IMG/VR virus record: IMGVR_UViG_3300045988_149468
Location: 1 to 64,000 of that record
From: a virus
Reading direction: 5' to 3' (one strand)
DNA length: 64,000 nt
Shown: positions 1,202 through 46,922 of the stretch, piece after piece
Layout of the letters: the number at the start of each line of letters is the position of its first letter
Position numbering within the stretch: the first letter of the stretch is position 1
The notes under the pieces: model-generated
What the model was told of the DNA's origin: nothing
The model's database searches: none
The model's input: the letters and a program-made list of their open reading frames with translations, nothing else
Translations under genes and position numbers: made by a program

Positions 1202-1208
1202 TTAAGTA

Positions 1209-1237
1209 TTGACAAAATTTGGTTATGAGTATATAAT
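1209..1237 (+). promoter_or_regulatory. sigma-A-type promoter driving tnpB copy 1
   Basis: TTGACA at 1209-1214, a 17-nt spacer, TATAAT at 1232-1237, then the box at 1241-1257 and a GGAGG RBS. Confidence 0.6.
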
Positions 1238-1272
1238 AAAAATATAAAAATTAATAAAGGAGGTGATAGAAG

Positions 1273-2415
1273 ATGATTAGAAGTTATAAAGTAAGATTAG
1301 AACCAACAAAGGAACAAATAGAAATGTTATTTAAAACTGCTGGTTGTTCTAGATTTGTATATAATTGGTGTTTAGCATTTCAAAAGGAAAGATATGAACA
1401 AGGTGAAAAATTTGTTAGTGCAATGGGAATGAGTAAATATTTAACAGCACTTAAAAAACAAGATGATTATAGTTGGTTAAAAGAAGTTGATAGCATAGCA
1501 CTTGTTGGAGCATATACAGATGCCTGTACATCATTTAAAAACTTTTTCCAGGGACTTAAAAAGGGTCAAAAGGTTGGATATCCTAAATTTAAATCCAAAA
1601 AACATTCAAAACCTGCATTTATGCCTAATTATCAAAATATTAAATTTAACGAAAATCAAGTTAAACTGCCAAAAGTGGGGATAGTTAAATTAAGCAGAAA
1701 AAACTATATACCAATAGTAAAAAAATACAGCAATCCAAGAGTTACCTTTGATGGACTTAATTGGTATATATCAGTAGGAGTTGAAGAAGCTGAAAATATT
1801 AGTTTAGAACTTAATGGAACAATAGGAGTTGATCTTGGATTAAAAGATACAGCTATACTTAGCACAGGAAAGAAATATAAAAATATTAATAAAACTGCTC
1901 ATGTAAAGAGAATAGAAAAAAGACTTAAAAAGCTACAAAGACAAGTAAGCAGAAAATACGAACAAAATAAACAAGGAAAACAATATATTAAAACAAATAA
2001 TATAATAAAACTTGAAAAAAATATAAATAAACTACACAAAAGACTTGCTAATATCAGAAATAACTATAATCATAATATAACTGCTGATATAGTAAATATG
2101 AACCCTCAAAGAATAGTAATAGAAGATCTAAACATTAAAGGCATGATGAAAAATAAACATCTATCTAATGCAATAGGAAAACAAGGGTTATATGAAATAA
2201 CTAGACAACTTGAATATAAATGTAAATTTAAAGGAATTGAATTAATAAAAGCAGATAGATTTTTCCCAAGTAGCAAAACTTGTTCTAATTGTGGACATAT
2301 TAAAAAAGACTTAAAATTAAGTGATAGAATATATATTTGTCCTGAATGTGGTACTGTAATTGATAGAGATTTAAATGCATCTATTAACTTAGCAAATTAT
2401 AAAACTGAACAATAA
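1273..2415 (+). CDS. tnpB: TnpB (IS200/IS605-family OrfB, RNA-guided nuclease), with no TnpA partner
   Basis: RuvC motifs 'IGVDLGLKD', 'VIEDLNIKGM' and 'IDRDLNASINL' are present. The zinc ribbon is 'CSNCGHI...CPECG'. The N-terminus 'YKVRLEPTKEQ' is typical of OrfB_IS605. Confidence 0.9.
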   Translation: MIRSYKVRLEPTKEQIEMLFKTAGCSRFVYNWCLAFQKERYEQGEKFVSAMGMSKYLTALKKQDDYSWLKEVDSIALVGAYTDACTSFKNFFQGLKKGQKVGYPKFKSKKHSKPAFMPNYQNIKFNENQVKLPKVGIVKLSRKNYIPIVKKYSNPRVTFDGLNWYISVGVEEAENISLELNGTIGVDLGLKDTAILSTGKKYKNINKTAHVKRIEKRLKKLQRQVSRKYEQNKQGKQYIKTNNIIKLEKNINKLHKRLANIRNNYNHNITADIVNMNPQRIVIEDLNIKGMMKNKHLSNAIGKQGLYEITRQLEYKCKFKGIELIKADRFFPSSKTCSNCGHIKKDLKLSDRIYICPECGTVIDRDLNASINLANYKTEQ

Positions 2416-2573
2416 TCATTAGCAAGATTAGTTCGGTATGTAGGGAGGTTTAACCCCGACTTTATGCTCTTGGAGAATTACACCAACCCAAGTAGCTTAG
2501 GCAAAAGGGAATTCGATGAAGAGAGAACCTTGTTTAATTGGAATATATTCTGTTATACAAGGATTAAAACAGG
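2340..2573 (+). ncRNA. candidate omega (re)RNA scaffold of tnpB copy 1
   Basis: A G+C-richer, hairpin-rich 3' tail runs from the end of tnpB to the terminator (e.g. GGGAGGTTTAACCCC). The position matches known TnpB guide RNAs. Ends and guide are not defined. Confidence 0.4.
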
Positions 2574-2600
2574 ACTTGGATAAACTTTCAAGTCTTTTTT
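2574..2600 (+). terminator. rho-independent terminator
   Basis: The stem GACTTG/CAAGTC is followed by TTTTTT. Confidence 0.6.
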
Positions 2601-2781: not shown

Positions 2782-3540
2782 ATGAAAAATAGAACAGGTG
2801 AAATTAATTATAATAATTTTGGTAGTAAAATGATAATAAAAGAATATAGAAAATATTCAGATGTTGATATTTATTTTCCTAAGTATAATTGGACTGCTGA
2901 GAGTGTGCAATATAATAAATTTAAAAGTGGTGAAATAAAATGTCCTTACGAACCAAGAGTTTATAATCATGGATATGTTGGAGAAGGAAAATATAATTAT
3001 AAAGAACATAAAAGGCATTATACTACTTGGAAGAATATGTTAAAAAGATGTTATGACCCTAAATTTCATAAAAATAATTCAAGTTATATAAAATGTGAAG
3101 TTTTTAAGGATTGGTTGAATTTTCAAAATTTCGCCAAATGGTATGATGATAATTTTTATCAACTAGAAAATGAAGTTATGCATTTAGATAAAGATATTTT
3201 GTATAAACATAATAAAATTTATTCACCAAAAACATGTATTTTTGCTCCACAAAATATTAATATATTATTTATTAAATCTGAGAAAAGCAGAGGGGATGCA
3301 CCAATTGGAGTTTATTGGGATAAAATTAAAAATGTTTTCATAGCAAAAGGAACTATATTTGAAAATGGCAAAAGTAAAACTGTACACCTAGGTAGATATA
3401 ATAATTCTAATGATGCTTTTCAATCTTATAAAAATTTCAAAGAAAATCATTTAAAAGAAATCGCAAACTTATACAAAGATAGAATACCACAAAAATTATA
3501 TAATGCTTTAATAAATTATAAAGTAGAAATTACAGATTAA
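2782..3540 (+). CDS. AP2-domain DNA-binding protein (homing-endonuclease-associated type)
   Basis: The C-terminal 'PIGVYWDKIKNVFIAKGTIFENGKSKTVHLGRYNNSNDAFQSY' fits the AP2/ERF-like fold signature. It has its own promoter, box (2752-2768) and RBS. Confidence 0.55.
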   Translation: MKNRTGEINYNNFGSKMIIKEYRKYSDVDIYFPKYNWTAESVQYNKFKSGEIKCPYEPRVYNHGYVGEGKYNYKEHKRHYTTWKNMLKRCYDPKFHKNNSSYIKCEVFKDWLNFQNFAKWYDDNFYQLENEVMHLDKDILYKHNKIYSPKTCIFAPQNINILFIKSEKSRGDAPIGVYWDKIKNVFIAKGTIFENGKSKTVHLGRYNNSNDAFQSYKNFKENHLKEIANLYKDRIPQKLYNALINYKVEITD

Positions 3541-5885: not shown

Positions 5886-6010
5886 ATACCTTTAATTCGT
5901 GAACTACTCACGAGCTAAGCTCGTTGGCTTCCTAGGTAAGGTTACTATTGTAACTAATTTACTAGGCTCAAAAGATTGTTCCAATCTCTTATTTTTTTAT
6001 TATTGTAATA
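5886..6010 (-). ncRNA. candidate omega RNA and guide of the IS1341-like element
   Basis: In the minus-strand sense, structured sequence follows the tnpB stop (GTTAC-AATA-GTAAC and ACGAGC-TTA-GCTCGT hairpins). It ends at the inferred right end; the next ~20 nt of flank would be the guide. Confidence 0.45.
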
Positions 6011-7215
6011 TTCTCAATCCTTCATGTAATATATTTATACTTGCATTTATATCTCTATCATGATGCTTGCCACAATATGGACAAGTGAACTCTCTTATGT
6101 CTAATGGTTTTTTGCCTGTATTTTCACCACAATTAGAACATATTTGACTAGAAGGATAATATTTATCTACAAAAGAAATTGTTCTTCCATACCATTTAGC
6201 CTTATATTCTAATTGTCTTCTAAATTCATACCATCCTACATCTGATGCAGATTGAGATAAATATTTATTTTGTTGAATTTCTTTTACTTGTAAATCTTCC
6301 AAACATATTACTTGGTTTTCGTTTATAAGTTCAGAAGTTAATTTATGTAAAAAATCTTTTCTTTGATTAGCTATTTTTTCATGTAGTTTAGCAACTTTTA
6401 TTCTTTGTTTATTTCTGTTTTTACTACCTTTTTTCTTCCTAGATAACTTTATTTGTTCTTTAGCTAATTTATTTAATGATTTTTTCAAATATCTAGGATT
6501 AGGATATTTTATACCATCTGAAGTTATTGCAAAATCAGTTAATCCTAAATCTATACCAACTGCGAATTTACTTTTAGGTAACTGTTTTATTTCTTGATCC
6601 ACTAATATAGAAATATAATATTTATTATCAGGATTTTTAGATATTGTAGCTGATTTAATTATTCCATCTTTAGGTATTTGTCTATGTAATTTAATTCTAA
6701 CTAATGTTTTTAATTTTGGTAACTTAATATACTTGTCATCTATTATTTTTATTGTTTGTGTTTTTTGATTGTTATTTGTTGTATAATTATAATGATTATT
6801 CTTTTTAGATTTAAATTTAGGAAATCCGACTGATTTATCTCTAAAGAAATTTTTATATGCTTTGTCTAAATTCATTTGAGCATTAGCTAATGCTAAACTA
6901 TCCACTTCTTTTAACCATTGATATTCTTTTTTATACTGCGCAGGAGTATTATTTAACATTTTATTGTTTTCTTTATAATACTCTATTTTATCGTTTAACA
7001 TTTTGTTATATATAAATCTAACACTACCAAAACATTTAGAAAAATATATCTTTTGTTCTTTATTTGGATATAGTCTATATTTATATGCTTTTAACATTTT
7101 ATCACCTCCTTATACTATATAGTATTTCCATTTTAAGGTAAAAATAAACCTATTTTAACTATATTAAAAAGATAATAAAACGCCTTACAATGGAAATATA
7201 AAGGGATTTTTAATA
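5906..7215 (-). mobile_element. TnpB-only IS200/IS605-family (IS1341-like) insertion
   Basis: It has tnpB plus a subterminal hairpin at the right end (ACGAGC-TTA-GCTCGT). The right-end boundary at 5905/5906 comes from comparison with an uninterrupted paralogous sequence at about 5225-5290. The left-end boundary (about 7200-7215) is uncertain. A long-range inverted repeat, TATTTCCATT(T/G)TAAGG, lies at about 7121 and about 7185. Confidence 0.6.
6000..7097 (-). CDS. tnpB: TnpB (IS200/IS605-family OrfB), from a different lineage than the other two copies
   Basis: 'YKYRLYPNKEQ', 'VGIDLGLTDF', 'ICLEDLQVKEI' and 'CSNCGE...CPYCGKHHDRDINASINI' are present. Confidence 0.9.
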   Translation of the reverse strand: MLKAYKYRLYPNKEQKIYFSKCFGSVRFIYNKMLNDKIEYYKENNKMLNNTPAQYKKEYQWLKEVDSLALANAQMNLDKAYKNFFRDKSVGFPKFKSKKNNHYNYTTNNNQKTQTIKIIDDKYIKLPKLKTLVRIKLHRQIPKDGIIKSATISKNPDNKYYISILVDQEIKQLPKSKFAVGIDLGLTDFAITSDGIKYPNPRYLKKSLNKLAKEQIKLSRKKKGSKNRNKQRIKVAKLHEKIANQRKDFLHKLTSELINENQVICLEDLQVKEIQQNKYLSQSASDVGWYEFRRQLEYKAKWYGRTISFVDKYYPSSQICSNCGENTGKKPLDIREFTCPYCGKHHDRDINASINILHEGLRILQ

Positions 7216-8777: not shown

Positions 8778-8817
8778 AATATAACCTCCTAATTATTAAT
8801 TTATATTTTTGTTACCA

Positions 8818-8886
8818 CCTAAGAGGATAATTATCCTCTTAACGCTTAGGGCTTAAGGTATTGTTTTTAGCTGCCCTAACAACTTA
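8818..8886 (-). ncRNA. conserved two-hairpin RNA element, copy A
   Basis: The hairpins are 8820-8841 (AAGAGGATA/TATCCTCTT) and 8846-8852/8873-8879 (TTAGGGC/GCCCTAA). It is homologous to 11128-11197, with compensatory changes in both stems. Confidence 0.55.
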
Positions 8887-10971: not shown

Positions 10972-11127
10972 TTTATTTCCCTCCTGTTATTAATTTATAT
11001 TTATATTGTATATTAATTAATGTTATTTGTCAACTACTTTTTATGTATTTACTATGTTTTTTTATTAACTTGTATCAGGTAAGATCAGATACTAATTAAT
11101 ATTTTGTAGGTTGATTTGATTTGCTAA

Positions 11128-11197
11128 CCTAAGGGAATTAAATATTCCCTTAACGCTTTGGGCTTAATAGCCTTTTTAGAGTTGCCCAAACAACTTA
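11128..11197 (-). ncRNA. conserved two-hairpin RNA element, copy B
   Basis: The hairpins are 11130-11152 (AAGGGAAT/ATTCCCTT) and 11157-11163/11184-11190 (TTTGGGC/GCCCAAA). See copy A. Confidence 0.55.
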
Positions 11198-27235: not shown

Positions 27236-28081
27236 ATGGAGGTGATAACAATTGCTAGACAACAAACAAAATTAAAGTGTTATTGTTGTGGTGAAGAAAG
27301 AGGATTGAAGGAATTTTATAGAGCTTCTTCTTCATTGTATCAACAAAATGGAAAAATGCTAGTTTGTAAACATTGTATTAAAAAGAGATATGAACAGTTA
27401 TTAGCTGTTTATAAAGGTGATAAAGTACAAGCTTTCAAGCATACATTAATGAATTTTGATGTGTATTTTGATTTAGATTTATATAATGTTTGTGTAAAAA
27501 AGGAAGATAATTTTGTAGGTGAGTATTTTAGATTATTAGCTACAAAAGAAAGAAGGGATAAAACTAGCATTGATAATATAATGGATGGTGATTCATCTGC
27601 TACAGGCTTAATATCTGATGAATTAGTTTTATTTTGGGGTAGAGGATATGACTATGAATCTTATATGAGTTTGGAAAGAAAATATGAAAATTATATTAAA
27701 TATTACCCTTCTGAATCAATGCAAGAAAAACAAATAATTAAAACTCTTTGTGAGTTAGAAGTACAAAAAGAAAAAAGTATCATTAAAGGTGATACTAATG
27801 AACAATTAAAAATCAATGACCAGATATCTAAAAAGATGGCTGAATTAGATATTATACCTAGTAAAGCCAAGAAATATAGTGAAGACAAAGATTTAGTTGT
27901 TGGTAAATTAATTGAAATGATTGAAAAAGATGAACCAATACCAGATGTTCATCCTGAATTTAAAGATGTTGATAGAATCTTATATTGGTTAAATAGATAT
28001 TTTATCAGCCCAATGAAAAAAGTATTTGGATTAGAACCAGCGATTTATACCGAGGAGGATGAGGTCAATAAATATTTATAA
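27236..28081 (+). CDS. putative small terminase / packaging-associated DNA-binding protein with an N-terminal Zn ribbon
   Basis: The call rests on its position upstream of terL, the 'CYCCGE...CKHC' motif and the absence of other terS candidates. The start codon is uncertain. Confidence 0.35.
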   Translation: MEVITIARQQTKLKCYCCGEERGLKEFYRASSSLYQQNGKMLVCKHCIKKRYEQLLAVYKGDKVQAFKHTLMNFDVYFDLDLYNVCVKKEDNFVGEYFRLLATKERRDKTSIDNIMDGDSSATGLISDELVLFWGRGYDYESYMSLERKYENYIKYYPSESMQEKQIIKTLCELEVQKEKSIIKGDTNEQLKINDQISKKMAELDIIPSKAKKYSEDKDLVVGKLIEMIEKDEPIPDVHPEFKDVDRILYWLNRYFISPMKKVFGLEPAIYTEEDEVNKYL

Positions 28082-28089
28082 ATATGTTG

Positions 28090-29430
28090 TGAAAACTTAT
28101 AAATATTTATTGACATATTGATGATTCTATGATATAATCTAATTATGATAATTAATAAGGGGAGTGATGAGATGAAATCTTTTATTGTTAGATTGTATCC
28201 AACTAAAGAACAAGAGATTCTGTTCTATAAACATATTAACTGTCAAAGATATGTTTATAATTGGGCATTGAATTTGAATAATGAATTATACAGAAAAGAT
28301 AAAAAGAAATATTCTTCTACTGAGTTAGGTAAAATGTTAACACAATATAAAAAACAAGAAGTGTGGTTGAGTGAAGTTTCTAATGCAACATTAAAAGAAT
28401 CAATTAGAAATTTAGATAAAGCTTATACTAATTTCTATAAGAAAAGAGCAAAATTGCCTAAATTTAAAAGTAAAAAGAAATCTAAATTATCTTTTTACAG
28501 CAGATATGACAAAATTAAATTTTATCAAAATAATACTGTTAATTTAGAAAAAATAGGTAAAGTTAAATATAGATCTAGTTATGATATTGATTTTACTAAA
28601 GAAAATTCATTTAAAAATCCTCATGTGAGTTTCAATGGTAGATGTTGGGTTCTCACGTTTGGATTAGAATTAAAAAATGAAGTTGACATACCAACAGACA
28701 ATGTTATTGGAATCGACTTAGGAATTAAATATTTAGCAGTATGTAGCGATGGAGTTGTTTATAAAAATATAAATAAAGATGCTTCTGTTAAAAAATTAGA
28801 AAAAAGACTTAAAAGATTACAAAGACAAGTGAGTAGAAAATATGAATTAAATAAGAAGGGAGGGAATCGTTACATTAAAACTAATAATATTAAAAAGTTA
28901 GAAAAAGATATTAAGAATATTCATCGAAGACTTAAGAATATAAGATTAAATCATTTACATCAAACAACTGCTGACATAGTGAAAACCAAACCATACAAAG
29001 TAGTTATGGAAGATTTAAATATTACAAATATGATGAAAAATAAATCAATAGCAAAACACGTTTCTAAATTGGGCTTATATGAGTTTATTAGACAAATGAA
29101 ATATAAATGTGAATGGAATGGTATTGAATTTATACAGGTAGATAGATATTATCCATCAAGCAAAATGTGTAGTAAATGTGGAAACATTAAACATGATTTG
29201 AAATTGTCGGATAGAAGATATACTTGTAAATGTGGATTAAATATTGATAGAGATTTTAATGCTAGTTTAAATCTTATGAATTATGGATTATCACATTAAA
29301 GATAACTATAATATGTACCCACTCGTTGATGGGGAATTTAAGTCCTGGGACTATCAATTACTAAAGTAGGTTCGCCGAAATAGGATAGGATGAATAGGAA
29401 AATAAATTTATAACTTTTTATAAGTTTTAA
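28090..29430 (+). mobile_element. TnpB unit (promoter, tnpB, structured 3' RNA) inserted between terS-like and terL
   Basis: TTGACA...TATAAT and the box at 28142-28158, then tnpB, then a structured tail (GGGGAATTTAAGTCC...). The element ends are not defined. Confidence 0.5.
28172..29299 (+). CDS. tnpB: TnpB (paralog of 1273..2415)
   Basis: 'FIVRLYPTKEQ', 'IGIDLGIKY', 'VMEDLNITNM' and 'CSKCGN...CKCGLNIDRDFNASLNL' are present. It shares 'RLKKLQRQVSRKYE' with copy 1. I place the start at ATG 28172 (RBS AAGGGGAG) rather than the track start at 28145. Confidence 0.9.
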   Translation: MKSFIVRLYPTKEQEILFYKHINCQRYVYNWALNLNNELYRKDKKKYSSTELGKMLTQYKKQEVWLSEVSNATLKESIRNLDKAYTNFYKKRAKLPKFKSKKKSKLSFYSRYDKIKFYQNNTVNLEKIGKVKYRSSYDIDFTKENSFKNPHVSFNGRCWVLTFGLELKNEVDIPTDNVIGIDLGIKYLAVCSDGVVYKNINKDASVKKLEKRLKRLQRQVSRKYELNKKGGNRYIKTNNIKKLEKDIKNIHRRLKNIRLNHLHQTTADIVKTKPYKVVMEDLNITNMMKNKSIAKHVSKLGLYEFIRQMKYKCEWNGIEFIQVDRYYPSSKMCSKCGNIKHDLKLSDRRYTCKCGLNIDRDFNASLNLMNYGLSH

Positions 29431-29437
29431 GTAACGG

Positions 29438-31192
29438 ATGAAATGTATGATCCACCAAGTAAAAAGTAAACCAAGAAGAAGTTTAAAAAAAGATTCATTT
29501 CAAAATTTATTAGATGGTACTAAAATATGGGCTGAATATTGGAGAAAAAATCCACATAGATTTGCAATTGAATATTTACAATTAAATTTATATTGGTTTC
29601 AAATGGTTTTAATTTATATGATGAATATATGTAATATAAATGCTATAATTGCTTGTAGAGGTTTAGGAAAATCATGGATTACCGCTGTGTTTTGTTGTGT
29701 TAGAGCAATTTTATATCCTGGTAGTAAAATAATTATTGCATCTGGAAATAAAAAACAAGCAGGAAATATAATTACGGAAAAAATAGTAGATTTACAAAGG
29801 GAATCACCTGCTTTAGCTAGAGAAATTAAAGAAATTAAAACTCAACATGATAATATATGTTGTATATTTAAAAATGGTTCAACTATAAGAGTAACAACTT
29901 CTGGTGATGGAGCAAGAGGGGCTAGAGGTAATGTTCTTGTAGCTGATGAATTTAGACTTATCAAAGAAAAAGATATAAATTTTGTCTTAAAACAATTTTT
30001 AACAGCCCCTAGAAAACCTCCATTTATGGAAAAAGAAGAATATAAAAATTATCCAAAAGAAAGTAATCGTGAGATATATTTAAGTTCTGCGTGGTTAAAA
30101 AGTCACTGGAGTTACAATAAATTTGAAACAACTGTAAAAAGTATGTGTGAAGGTAAGCCTTCATTTGCTTGTGACATACCTTATATATGTTCATTAGATC
30201 ATGATTTATTGCTTAAAGAAAAAATAGAAGAAGATAAGGCACAAATAGGTCAAGTAGCTTATGATATGGAGTATTGTGGTCTATGGTTTGGGGAATCAGA
30301 AAATTCATACTTTAAATCTGATGAAATTAATAATTGTAGAGTATTAAATACAGCATTTTATCCTATGACTGTTAGTGATTATAGAGATGAAAAAGAAAAA
30401 GAGAAAAAAAGAAAACAAATGCCTAAAATGAAAGGTGAAATTAGGATAATGGGTATAGACGTTGCTGTTATGGGTGGTAAAAATAATGACAACTCTATAT
30501 ATACTTTAATGAGATTAATCCCTAATGTAAATGGATTTACTAGAGAAGTTGTGCATATGGAATCATACAATGGTTTAGATGTTGAAGAACAAGCCATGAG
30601 AATTAAAAGATTATTCTTTGAATTTAAATGTAATAAGATAATCATTGACTACAATGGTACTGGTTTTGCAGTTTTAAATGAATTAATGAAAGATACTTAT
30701 GATAAAATTGCAGATGCACATTATCCATCATTTGCAATATATGAAAGAAATACTAAAGAAAATGAACTTGATGTTGAAATGGGTAAAGGTGGTTTACCTG
30801 TGATTTATGCTATTAAACCAACAGAAACAAGTAATAATAATTGTTGTGTATGGTTAAAAAATGCTTTTGCATCAAGAAAAATAAGATTATTAATAGATGA
30901 ATCTGAAAAAAGAACAGATTATACAAAAGATAAAAAATTCTTTACAGACCCTGAGTATTCAGCACTTCAAATAGCACCTTTTATACAAACATCACAATTT
31001 GTATTTGAAACTTTAAATTTGGTATATGAAGTTAGAGATAAAGGGAATATAGCTGTAAGAGAACAAGGTAGAAATAGGAAAGATAGATATTCAAGTTTAT
31101 CATATGCTAATTATTTAGCTGAATTAATAGAAAATGAAAAATATAAAAAAGGTAAAAAAAGAAAAAGTAAATTTATGTTCTTTTATAATTAA
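29438..31192 (+). CDS. terL: terminase large subunit
   Basis: It has the Walker A-like 'ACRGLGKSW', Walker B 'VLVADEFRL' and nuclease motif 'IMGIDVAV'. The portal gene follows. Confidence 0.85.
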   Translation: MKCMIHQVKSKPRRSLKKDSFQNLLDGTKIWAEYWRKNPHRFAIEYLQLNLYWFQMVLIYMMNICNINAIIACRGLGKSWITAVFCCVRAILYPGSKIIIASGNKKQAGNIITEKIVDLQRESPALAREIKEIKTQHDNICCIFKNGSTIRVTTSGDGARGARGNVLVADEFRLIKEKDINFVLKQFLTAPRKPPFMEKEEYKNYPKESNREIYLSSAWLKSHWSYNKFETTVKSMCEGKPSFACDIPYICSLDHDLLLKEKIEEDKAQIGQVAYDMEYCGLWFGESENSYFKSDEINNCRVLNTAFYPMTVSDYRDEKEKEKKRKQMPKMKGEIRIMGIDVAVMGGKNNDNSIYTLMRLIPNVNGFTREVVHMESYNGLDVEEQAMRIKRLFFEFKCNKIIIDYNGTGFAVLNELMKDTYDKIADAHYPSFAIYERNTKENELDVEMGKGGLPVIYAIKPTETSNNNCCVWLKNAFASRKIRLLIDESEKRTDYTKDKKFFTDPEYSALQIAPFIQTSQFVFETLNLVYEVRDKGNIAVREQGRNRKDRYSSLSYANYLAELIENEKYKKGKKRKSKFMFFYN

Positions 31193-46043: not shown

Positions 46044-46190
46044 ATATTTCAGAAGAGGATTCAGATAAATATTTAAAATCAATAATGTCAGCGTATGGTG
46101 GCGTTGATGAATCATTGGATGCTATGAGTACCAAAGTTAAAGGTGCTGGTGATAATTACAGTAGATTAACTGATTATATGGATCAGGCAG
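46044..46190 (+). CDS. tape measure protein, exon 2
   Basis: In frame it reads (D)ISEEDSDKYLKSIMSAYGGVDESLDAMSTKVKGAGDNYSRLTDYMDQA. Confidence 0.65.
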
Positions 46191-46563
46191 ATGTTTGCCT
46201 AGTTGTATAGTAATATGCAACCGAAAACAACTCTAATTGCAGGTAATGGGTAAAGCCTTACACTACAATATGCCAGAAATGAGTATATGATAGTGCGAAA
46301 GCGGAAACAACGTAAGGATTCTCATATGGTTAAATCCTAAGTGGGAAATGATTAAATTCATACAATCCCTGTTCATGCAACCAAGCTCCCCTGTATATAA
46401 CGAGGAGAAGGCTCAACGACTAATTGTACATTACAAGCCAATGGTAATGGAAAAGGGTTGCTCCTATTTATATAGGATGAAGAAATAGTCTAATCTTATG
46501 TGAAAGCATAAGCAGTTTGTAAGAGAACGGCATAAATCTTGCGAATTTATGTGAATATGAAAG
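46191..46563 (+). ncRNA. group I intron 2 of the tape-measure gene
   Basis: Features are the P1 hairpin AGGCAG|ATGT-TTGCCT, AATTGCAGGTAA, AATCCTAAGT, ACGACTA (46416-46422) and AAATAGTC (46483-46490). The 3' module variant is GCAGTTTGTAAGAGAACGG. It is most similar to intron 4. Confidence 0.7.
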
Positions 46564-46574
46564 AAACTATGCAG
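46564..46574 (+). CDS. tape measure protein, micro-exon 3 (11 nt by my junctions; 21 nt under an alternative 3' splice site)
   Basis: AAACTATGCAG lies between two intron cores. It is required to keep exons 2 and 4 in frame (..DQA-ETMQ-NNFAVTS..). Confidence 0.45.
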
Positions 46575-46922
46575 GTGAAAGTTTAATCGCCTAGTAATAC
46601 AAGTGATTGTATTATTTTACTTTTTGAATTGCTGGAAACTCCTTAGAGTCTTAAATACTACAACATAATCTGAAAAGATAAGTGTGAAAGTTTAAAAAAT
46701 TTAAGAATTGGAAAATCAGCAGGTAAGATTCTAAGTTGATTATAAAATCAATATGAATAAACTTCAACGACTATTCCTGGCAAGGAAGTACATTCAAGCG
46801 AATGGAAGTGGAAAGCTCTTATAATAATTATAAGATAAAGATATAGTCTAGTATCCTATTGAAAAATAGGGAAGTTCATAAGAGAACTGATTAGGAAGTA
46901 GCGAACCTAATTGAATATAACG
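46575..46922 (+). ncRNA. group I intron 3 of the tape-measure gene
   Basis: Features are TTGAATTGCTGGAAAC, ACGACTA (46767-46773), AGATATAGTC (46839-46848) and GAAGTTCATAAGAGAACTG (46871-46889). It is most similar to intron 1. Confidence 0.7.

Follow-up and report, generated by a model that had tools for sequence, protein, structure and literature searches.

Transposase-free TnpB–reRNA modules of an SPbeta-like gut phage probably spread among sister phages by RNA-guided cutting of empty alleles

Two tnpB genes, tnpB1 (copy 1) and tnpB2 (copy 2), are present in the first 64,000 nt of IMG/VR virus record IMGVR_UViG_3300045988_149468, a stretch referred to here as the window. Comparison with sister phages that carry or lack these genes led us to conclude, with moderate confidence, that both loci are transposase-free RNA-guided nuclease modules that spread among sister phages by cutting empty alleles and then either being copied in or excluding the rival. 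The source contig (139,830 bp, human-gut metagenome) encodes SPbeta-type YonG, YonD and YonB, an MrpR-like repressor, an integrase and at least four tnpB genes; both modules thus reside in a temperate human-gut phage of SPbeta-like type. When both loci were compared by Megablast with 50,697 GenBank phages there were 0 matches, which left no annotated relatives to draw on. Guide/target and insert comparisons were made with sibling contigs from IMG/VR and from metagenomes (labelled L0xx–L1xx); the copy 1 empty sites came from exact-protein look-ups.

The two genes are as follows.
1273–2415, + strand: tnpB1, 380 aa, RuvC and zinc ribbon intact
28172–29299, + strand: tnpB2, 375 aa, RuvC and zinc ribbon intact

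A longer in-frame tnpB2 reading frame starts at 28145, but homologues begin at MKSF. The original prediction, made from the window's letters, had called the genes clear paralogs with common strings and intact catalytic motifs, and this was borne out. TnpB1 and TnpB2 were 49% identical over 379 aa (BLASTP, E 4e-111) and both contained the strings RLK(K/R)LQRQVSRKYE and YIKTNNI.KLEK. The Pfam domains HTH_OrfB_IS605, OrfB_IS605 and Cas12f1-like_TNB were found in both. The best solved relative of each was 8IAZ (E 1.6e-83 and 1.4e-72), a chain that we interpret as the IS607 TnpB described by Ren et al. 2024. Alignment of both proteins to 8IAZ showed that the RuvC D/E/D residues (GVDLG/GIDLG, IEDLN/MEDLN and the second Asp of DRD) and the zinc-ribbon cysteines are kept. 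The features of RNA-guided TnpB (OMEGA) nucleases, namely HTH/WED-REC, a split RuvC D-E-D and a zinc-ribbon TNB, are all present. Since RuvC is intact in both copies, nuclease-dead TnpB repressors (TldR) can be set aside. Both proteins passed the NCBIfam guided_TnpB model (328 bits for TnpB1 and 301 for TnpB2; cut-off 100) and scored below the cut-offs of IS607_TnpB (NF038280; 208 and 177 bits, cut-off 350) and IS200_TnpB (301 and 279 bits, cut-off 425). Relative to its relatives, tnpB1 had dN/dS values of 0.09–0.16 at dS up to 0.69, indicating that it is under purifying selection. Ungapped dN/dS values for tnpB2 against L090–L113 were discarded, as frame and indel offsets made them unreliable.

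A candidate right-end RNA (reRNA) scaffold lies directly downstream of each gene.
2416–2570, + strand: reRNA1 scaffold, with a 5′ flank stem at ~2442–2456, RAGATH-18 core at 2467–2527 and 3′ part at 2528–2570, ending in ...ACAAGGATTAAAAC
29300–29436, + strand: reRNA2 scaffold, with RAGATH-18 core at 29343–29401, ending in ...AAGTAACG

Ren et al. 2024 (PMC11061315) identified RAGATH-18 as the core of the reRNA that guides IS607-type TnpB. They found the reRNA wholly downstream of the coding sequence (CDS), the guide in the ~20 nt past the scaffold, and cleavage by the ribonucleoproteins (RNPs) of DNA bearing the target-adjacent motif (TAM) AGGAG or GAGGG. RAGATH-18 (Rfam RF03064) matched the window just 3′ of both tnpB genes, on the same strand and without overlapping the CDS, with 63.6 bits for copy 1 and 46.7 bits for copy 2 (gathering score 44.9). 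By protein and RNA, both loci are modules of the IS607-type TnpB/RAGATH-18 reRNA family of RNA-guided double-stranded DNA endonucleases. The copies belong to different sub-lineages: copy 2 has an AGGAG TAM and a scaffold ending in TAACG, and copy 1 an inferred TTTA TAM, a scaffold ending in AAAAC and sister genes with CRISPR arrays. The original prediction had taken the 3′ flanks for guide RNAs, as the RAGATH-18 matches now support, without recognising the known RNA family or the separate sub-lineages. The common stem it had reported (GGGnnnTTTAAnnCC at 2442–2456 and 29331–29345) is real, and is conserved in both families as a 5′ flanking hairpin. The broader claim of structured flanks gained no support from folding energies, as single-sequence folds were no better than shuffles (z −0.68 for copy 1, +1.5 for copy 2). 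The evidence for RNA structure is therefore that of the Rfam covariance-model matches and of family conservation.

In many TnpB2-clade relatives (L090–L098, L103, L104, L113, L127) the RAGATH-18 core shows a 9-nt deletion as well as substitutions when compared with the window, L093 and L095, and some copies in that clade may have impaired RNAs. This core deletion, together with the folding result and the mismatches of the window's guide 2 to the sampled empty sites (below), would fit a view of the loci as decaying relics, with genes intact only through recent insertion and with non-functional RNAs and guides. The window copies, however, have full-length RAGATH-18 matches above the gathering score, intact catalytic residues and promoters with 12/12 consensus bases, and tnpB1 shows a dN/dS of ~0.1 at dS up to 0.69. 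We consider decay very improbable.

The boundaries of copy 2, which has a yonG-like gene on one side and terL, encoding the large terminase, on the other, were defined by phages that lack it.
28053–28057, + strand: AGGAG, the copy 2 TAM (TAM from PMC11061315), in empty sites part of the terL Shine-Dalgarno (SD) sequence
28058–28065, + strand: left copy of an 8-bp duplication, GATGAGGT; the right copy, at 29437–29444, is GATGAAAT in the window and a perfect GATGAGGT in L008
28066–29436, + strand: insert of 1,371 bp containing the left end, promoter cassette, tnpB2 and reRNA2 scaffold; absent from eight empty-site contigs
29437–29456, + strand: guide 2, GATGAAATGTATGATCCACC, spanning the terL start codon (ATG at 29447)

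The insert starts 106 nt upstream of the tnpB2 ATG and lies between the terL SD and the terL ATG. In the eight empty sites (L134 from IMG/VR and seven metagenome contigs, L158–L164) the yonG-like gene runs straight into terL, and all have the pattern ...AGGAG|GATGA(GG/AA)TATATGATCC. Two types were distinguished: type A, ...ACTG AGGAG GATGAGGTATATGATCC..., and type B, ...AGGAG GATGAAATATATGATCC... In these sites AGGAGG is the SD of terL, whose ATG corresponds to 29447 of the window, and the yonG-like reading frame overlaps the terL start. A TerL exact-protein look-up had returned occupied alleles only. The right end, ...TAACG, was conserved across 18 relatives, which occupy at least 10 contexts; a start codon nearly always follows closely downstream. 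TnpB2-clade relatives have a different left end of ~100 nt, with a TTGATT-N17-TATAAT promoter of their own and without the leader box described below. The original prediction had proposed a search of related phages for empty sites and true element ends, and it was this comparison that yielded the eight empty sites, the copy 2 ends at 28066 and 29436 and a copy 1 right end at 2570. It also revised the accompanying claim that there is no recognisable insertion sequence (IS) left end and that expression is from the phage's own promoter. For copy 2 the empty sites show a discrete insert; because the cassette lies within it, the promoter is the module's own phage-style promoter rather than a resident one. 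For copy 1 the claim comes closer.

The guide of copy 2 varies together with its target. The 375-aa TnpB2 protein was found on 13 contigs, and the occupied alleles examined had three guide variants: GATGAAATGT... in the window and four others, GATGAAGTAT... in four, and GATGAGGTAT... in L008. The L008 guide matches type A empty sites at 20/20 positions, next to AGGAG. Copy 2 has the arrangement of an AG-rich TAM at the left end and a guide past the right end, and in the empty sites AGGAG is followed directly by the target; for copy 1 the inferred motif is TTTA. The insert is also far less diverged than its surroundings. The tnpB2 CDS had 0/1128 nt differences in five siblings (L005–L009), and the whole insert was 99.4–99.8% identical to the window in eight siblings, while the adjacent flanks were 92.7–98.2% identical in seven of them; L003 was near-identical throughout. 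This is the pattern expected from recent lateral spread through diverged backbones. Insertion replaces the YonG-like C-terminus, breaks the yonG-like/terL overlap and removes the terL SD, so it is likely to be costly rather than useful to the phage, which argues for drive rather than benefit.

An SD (AGGAG) before each ATG was considered as TAM and left boundary. This was refuted for copy 2 by the empty site in L134, and TTTA is the likely TAM for copy 1. Direct duplications of 5–7 bp right after an AG-rich motif were also seen at three other, independent insertions of the TnpB2 clade (GGTTTTA after AGGAG in L093, GTGTAGT after ATGAG in L104 and GAGAT after AAGGG in L090). A 9-bp duplication in L099 was dropped because it is explained by the consensus SD, and six-mer 'duplications' in the same scan were at chance level. 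IS607 elements are described as inserting at or after GG with no target duplication (PMC13565253). Copy 2 lies in a GG context (GAGGAGG), yet has its 8-bp duplication, so its insertion route would not be textbook IS607.

This bears on an alternative in which both loci are ordinary non-autonomous passengers of IS607 or IS1341 type, mobilised by TnpA in trans from the host. TnpB would then serve only restorative homing after excision, and the promoter likeness would have arisen by recombination with phage cassettes. The position of the copy 2 insert 3′ of an AGGAG TAM is like that of canonical IS607 elements, the TnpB2-clade relatives have a conserved ~100-nt left end with its own promoter, and recombination breakpoints at the −35 element and the box were seen in sibling L142. 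A transposase was looked for directly. Copy 1 is flanked by a Bro-N/ANT antirepressor gene and a 34-aa open reading frame (ORF) on one side and by an AP2-domain HNH-endonuclease-like gene on the other, and the copy 2 neighbours are the yonG-like gene and terL. As predicted, then, no transposase adjoins either tnpB, and tblastn of the window with five IS607 TnpA proteins from distant relatives found no serine recombinase. The serine-recombinase TnpA that defines an IS607 insertion sequence is absent from these elements. Among 135 loci searched, it was also absent beside every locus of either clade (~23 for TnpB1, ~18 for TnpB2) and beside all relatives at least 60% identical. A MerR-HTH plus Resolvase TnpA directly upstream of tnpB was found only in distant relatives at 43–51% identity, which is a point for passenger elements of this kind. 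Among 185,579 species genomes (one each) the closest relative, in a Clostridium sp. metagenome-assembled genome, was only 68% identical (to TnpB2). The original prediction had allowed that a TnpA-bearing master copy would overturn it; none was found in the viral or species-representative genome collections. The 8-bp duplication, the difference between the window's copy 2 left end and that of its clade, the lack of a copy 1 left end beyond the SD, and the presence of one insert at one site across diverged backbones, rather than at many sites, likewise speak against passenger elements, which we regard as unlikely. A 112-aa MerR-HTH ORF (L001:654-992, − strand), ~8 kb upstream of the window and near genes for an MrpR_C_cat protein and an integrase, was rejected as a transposase, because it resembles only the IS607 TnpA N-terminal domain (E 6e-11) and has no resolvase domain.

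At copy 1, the right end and the guide coincide with a phage terminator.
2571–2590, + strand: guide 1, AGGACTTGGATAAACTTTCA, preceded by ...TTAAAAC in the window and by TTTA in sibling phages
2571–2600, + strand: intrinsic terminator, a 10-bp stem (2571–2596) and T run, overlapping guide 1

Guide 1 forms the 5′ arm and loop of a terminator that recurs at cassette ends in these phages. The right end is exact at 2570|2571: eight sibling contigs with the AP2 gene align from 2571 onward, and in L143 a tnpB1 92% identical to that of the window continues up to the base matching 2570 and is followed by other genes. All seven tnpB1-less siblings and L143 have the 20 nt of guide 1 unchanged, preceded by ...GAACTTTA. 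The tnpB1 of L143 has other guides: its scaffold end is followed by a leader of 103 nt, with homology to the leader of the relatives' arrays (below), and by one repeat. The sequence next to that repeat, GATGAATATTTTG..., is preceded by ...TAATTTA in the three naive siblings that have it (L144, L147, L149). Both copy 1 right-end junctions, those of the window and of L143, thus fall exactly at TTTA| sites of naive genomes. From this the window phage would be predicted to cut its siblings there while being immune itself.

On the left side, relatives in three other contexts are homologous only from AAGGAGGTGA, the Firmicutes consensus SD. At the copy 1 position, siblings without tnpB1 carry a homologous promoter cassette that drives a 72-aa gene. 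Copy 1 therefore occupies a hypervariable early region as a gene cassette, with a phage promoter cassette on its left and a phage terminator on its right. AP2-gene homologues in IMG/VR lay in unrelated contexts and gave no copy 1 empty site, and a scan of viral contigs with guide 1 returned the already known sibling only. No second near-match to guide 1 or guide 2 was found in the window. The search of the guides against the element and related phages, as originally proposed, gave matches only in homologous sibling loci. A partial second terminator copy at 2680–2701 (GATAAACTTTCAAGTCTTTTTTT) lacks the 5′ arm and is thus no target.

The TTTA motif was seen independently in the TnpB1 clade. CRISPR arrays lie beside TnpB1 relatives 84–92% identical to the window protein (380 aa; L012–L035, phage contigs of 36–73 kb), downstream of a scaffold remnant resembling a trans-activating CRISPR RNA (tracr-like). 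The arrays, found in the range L012–L036 (for example L014:4490-4900, L012:4277-4510 and L035:4031-4335), have 3–6 repeats of 36 nt, (G)TAACAGAATATATTCCAGTTAAACAAGGATTAAAAC, and spacers of 36–41 nt. The last ~27 nt of the repeat are a close copy of the window scaffold end, and the scaffold holds the complementary element.
2528–2555, + strand: built-in anti-repeat, 27/28 complementary to the first 28 nt of the 36-nt repeat

Protospacers of five different spacers were located in related phage contigs, with 5′-TTTA in four cases and TTCA in one; in several cases the carrier's own allele was mismatched to the spacer. No second copy of the scaffold end or of the repeat was found in the window, so that the window copy lacks the array of TranC or type V systems. 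TranC are transposon-CRISPR intermediates (Jin et al. 2025), as cited in 10.1101/2025.09.28.678669 and PMC13565253. The TnpB1 clade shows the transposon-to-CRISPR split described for them, in a phage-borne RAGATH-18 lineage. Some further variation was noted in and around the clade. One spacer matches an ISL3 transposase gene that is also present in the window-phage siblings L005 and L006; L023–L029 (64–68% identical to TnpB1) have apparent repeats (GTACAAATGTAATATACAATATAACAAGTATTGAAAC) and spacers ~40–110 nt upstream of tnpB and no downstream reRNA; and the L031 scaffold ends in ...GTATTGAAAC.

Both genes are preceded by the same expression cassette.
1209–1237, + strand: copy 1 promoter, TTGACA-N17-TATAAT, 12/12 consensus; position kept in tnpB1-less siblings, where it drives the 72-aa gene
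1249–1265, + strand: copy 1 AATTAATAA box (1249–1257) and SD AAGGAGGTG (1257–1265); homology to TnpB1 relatives in other phages starts at the SD
28110–28165, + strand: copy 2 cassette, with promoter at 28110–28138 (12/12), AATTAATAA box at 28150–28158 and SD GGGGAG at 28159–28164

Only five perfect 12/12 TTGACA-N17-TATAAT sites occur in the window. The AATTAATAA box lies ~11 nt past the promoter and is followed by a strong SD; AATTAATAA(RRGG) occurs 21 times in the window against 3.5 expected. The full cassette of −35, −10, box, SD and start codon was found eight times (at 1032, 1209, 2720, 3814, 14769, 28110 and 47648 on the + strand and 11033 on the − strand) and 0 times in 50 shuffles. The claim that the tnpB genes use the cassette of bona fide phage genes was therefore upheld, six other phage genes sharing it. 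The SPbeta promoter element SPBRE is repeated and bound by the master repressor MrpR (PMC10516654); by analogy, the AATTAATAA box may be an operator for the contig's MrpR-like protein. The region from the 34-aa ORF to the AP2 gene (1097–2800; siblings L141–L153) consists of hypervariable small gene cassettes, each with promoter, box and SD and a terminator, and the recombinant breakpoints in L142 coincide with the −35 hexamer and the AATTAATAA box. This suggests that cassette elements serve as recombination linkers.

The cassette also raises the question of whether the tnpB genes are domesticated, performing a phage function such as cutting host or prophage DNA, anti-defence, regulation or packaging (next to terL), with re-purposed guides that no longer serve module spread. 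A phage-type promoter, box and SD as in six other genes, an encoded MrpR-like master repressor for which the box could, by analogy with SPBRE, be the operator giving lytic-phase control, strong purifying selection on tnpB1, array-bearing sister effectors that target rival phages, and at least four tnpB genes on one contig can all be read in this way. Set against them are the intact RuvC, which leaves no TldR-type repressors, guide matches found only in homologous loci of sibling phages, the damage by copy 2 to the terL translation signals, and the absence of the modules from many otherwise near-identical siblings, which shows them to be dispensable. Domestication is, in our estimation, quite unlikely. 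The original prediction of TnpB–omega RNA modules wired into the phage expression programme, rather than a passive IS, stands as to RAGATH-18, the lack of TnpA and the phage cassette; it needs amendment for copy 2, whose promoter arrived inside the insert.

For modules that spread among sister phages, we propose the following course of events. Each module would be transcribed from a consensus sigma-A-type promoter, followed by the phage AATTAATAA leader box and a strong SD; for copy 1, the terminator at 2571–2600 would end the tnpB1–reRNA transcript. TnpB is known to process its own mRNA into guide RNA (PMC10278001), and the reRNA would likewise be excised from the 3′ untranslated region of the tnpB mRNA. 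The RNP would then search for a TAM followed by the 20 nt found just past the module's right end. The carrier would be spared, as there the guide-matching sequence follows the scaffold end and has no TAM, while in sister phages without the module the same or a closely similar sequence sits behind a TAM. If the carrier co-infected a cell with a sister phage, or encountered one as a resident prophage, the RNP would cut the sister genome, and either the rival would be destroyed or the break would be repaired from the carrier, copying the module in. The latter would amount to non-restorative homing, a category proposed in a 2026 review (PMC13565253), like that of the free-standing homing endonucleases of T4. 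The TnpB2 target would be the terL ribosome-binding site, AGGAG followed by GATGA..., i.e. GATGA(GG/AA)T(A/G)TATGATCC...; that of TnpB1 would be TTTA + AGGACTTGG..., the phage terminator doubling as a single guide. The homing and competitor-targeting roles originally suggested fit the guide–target matches in sister phages.

Several points weigh against this course of events. The anatomy, family, boundaries, sibling guide–target relations and low insert divergence can be read from the sequences, and from these we infer that the modules are expressed, that their RNA is processed, and that they cleave DNA and home; we also assume that these phages co-infect cells. The TTTA TAM of copy 1 is a prediction from the relatives' arrays and two junctions. 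The copy 1 locus has no defined left boundary and looks like a replacement or deletion product rather than a clean insertion. The terminator hairpin in guide 1 may hinder R-loop formation. Against type B empty sites the window's guide 2 shows a single mismatch, at position 9, and against type A sites it shows three; IS607 TnpB is reported to be mismatch-sensitive (PMC11061315). Finally, the 8-bp duplication at copy 2 is predicted neither by IS607 insertion nor by homing.

A wider scheme can be suggested only tentatively, and we hold it to be possible rather than probable. Here transposase-free TnpB/reRNA cassettes would act as RNA-guided gene drives and superinfection weapons among SPbeta-like gut phages, in a lineage that switches between one fixed guide and CRISPR arrays. 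A new guide would form when a spacer or guide recombined with a TAM-flanked protospacer in the phage's own genome, with loss of the intervening DNA and of the TAM. An early-promoter box under repressor control would make nuclease production coincide with lytic growth. Guide birth by such recombination would explain why both copy 1 junctions lie at TTTA| sites.

Other mobile or structured elements were noted in the same phages. A third gene, tnpB3 (CDS 6000–7097, − strand, 365 aa), missed by the original prediction, passes NCBIfam IS200_TnpB (473 bits, cut-off 425) and has neither the AATTAATAA box nor RAGATH-18. Its segment (5899–7154, − strand, 1,256 bp) is absent from seven siblings, which have an unrelated 75 nt there. 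The sequence 3′ of tnpB3 on the − strand, GAATTAAAGGTATAAA..., is preceded by ...ATTTTAA in these seven siblings, and the logic of guide and empty allele may apply to this gene as well. The AP2 gene downstream of copy 1 (2782–3540) resembles the C-terminal halves of PHROG 'HNH endonuclease' families (phrog_953, E 7.8e-60) and may be a relative or remnant of a free-standing homing endonuclease. Two Pistol ribozyme matches lie between small ORFs of the early region (8813–8884 and 11123–11195, both − strand; 58.6 and 63.6 bits, gathering score 34.5). An adjacent pair of group I intron matches (46174–46512 and 46567–46871, + strand; 50.5 and 73.4 bits) has similar fragments in L137. As both Intron_gpI matches in the window fall within 46174–46871, and none near copy 1 or copy 2, neither module has the features of an IStron. 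In siblings L005, L006 and L009, terL is in 79-, 88- and 423-aa pieces, separated by two inserts of ~375 and 290 nt that are not in the window (L005:11457-12355, L006:5352-6250; window equivalents 29628–29927); these may be introns or other mobile inserts.

The pairing of TnpB with a RAGATH-18 reRNA, homing by TnpB and the TranC transition are already known. What appears new is a phage population with matched occupied and empty alleles in which guide polymorphism tracks target polymorphism, a phage-type promoter cassette lying within or around the modules, a clade of RAGATH-18 type whose inferred motif is TTTA and whose arrays target sibling phages, and TAM-adjacent duplications. These observations address the question of how tnpB persists and spreads without a transposase, most tnpB genes being of that kind. 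With matched alleles, polymorphic guides and a low-divergence insert, homing between co-infecting phages becomes testable with two or three natural variants. A RAGATH-18-type TnpB with an inferred T-rich TAM beside array-bearing sisters would provide a closely spaced natural series for the TnpB-to-Cas12 transition, and the TnpB1 clade offers compact effectors (380 aa) with a simple inferred TTTA motif.

Among characterised systems, the modules resemble the ISFba1/IS607-family TnpB (PMC11061315; 8IAZ), with which they share a length of ~380 aa, domain order, the RuvC triad, a RAGATH-18 reRNA wholly downstream and, for copy 2, an AGGAG TAM at the left flank. They differ in having no TnpA, in their phage setting with phage-style cassettes, and in falling below the NCBIfam IS607_TnpB cut-off. 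The scaffold 3′ flank is 43 nt in copy 1 and 35 nt in copy 2, against 64 nt in the ISFba1/IS607 type. In contrast to that type, copy 1 ends in ...AAAAC with an inferred TTTA rather than AGGAG TAM, and copy 2 has an 8-bp flanking duplication. As in TnpB homing of IS200/IS605 and IS607 elements (Meers et al. 2023, PMC10055086; PMC13565253), the guide would be the DNA past the right end, the occupied allele would lack a TAM, only empty alleles would be cut, and repair would copy the element. The empty alleles here, however, are homologous loci of other phage genomes rather than excision products on a sister chromosome, and no transposase is involved.

A functional parallel would be with the free-standing homing endonucleases SegF, SegB and Mob of T-even phages (PMC13565253), selfish nuclease genes that likewise sit between conserved phage genes, including packaging genes. 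In intronless homing and marker exclusion these enzymes cut sibling phage, spread by co-conversion and leave the carrier protected by site differences, as is proposed here. Recognition in the present modules would be by guide RNA and TAM rather than by protein, and the target would be changeable through the sequence beside the right end. With TranC (LaTranC, PDB 9JFO), the TnpB1 clade shares both states: a single reRNA plus guide, or a tracr-like scaffold with arrays whose 36-nt repeats come from the scaffold end. The copy in the window nevertheless has no array, LaTranC is only a distant relative (E 1.5e-28, RuvC part only), and the lineage here is phage-borne and of RAGATH-18 type. Finally, CRISPR mini-arrays carried by phages and viruses are used in inter-virus conflict (reviewed in PMC11656645). 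The spacers of TnpB1 relatives resemble these in matching related phage contigs, with the carrier allele often mismatched. Unlike in those mini-arrays, the effector is TnpB-sized (380 aa), and the window has one fixed guide and no array.

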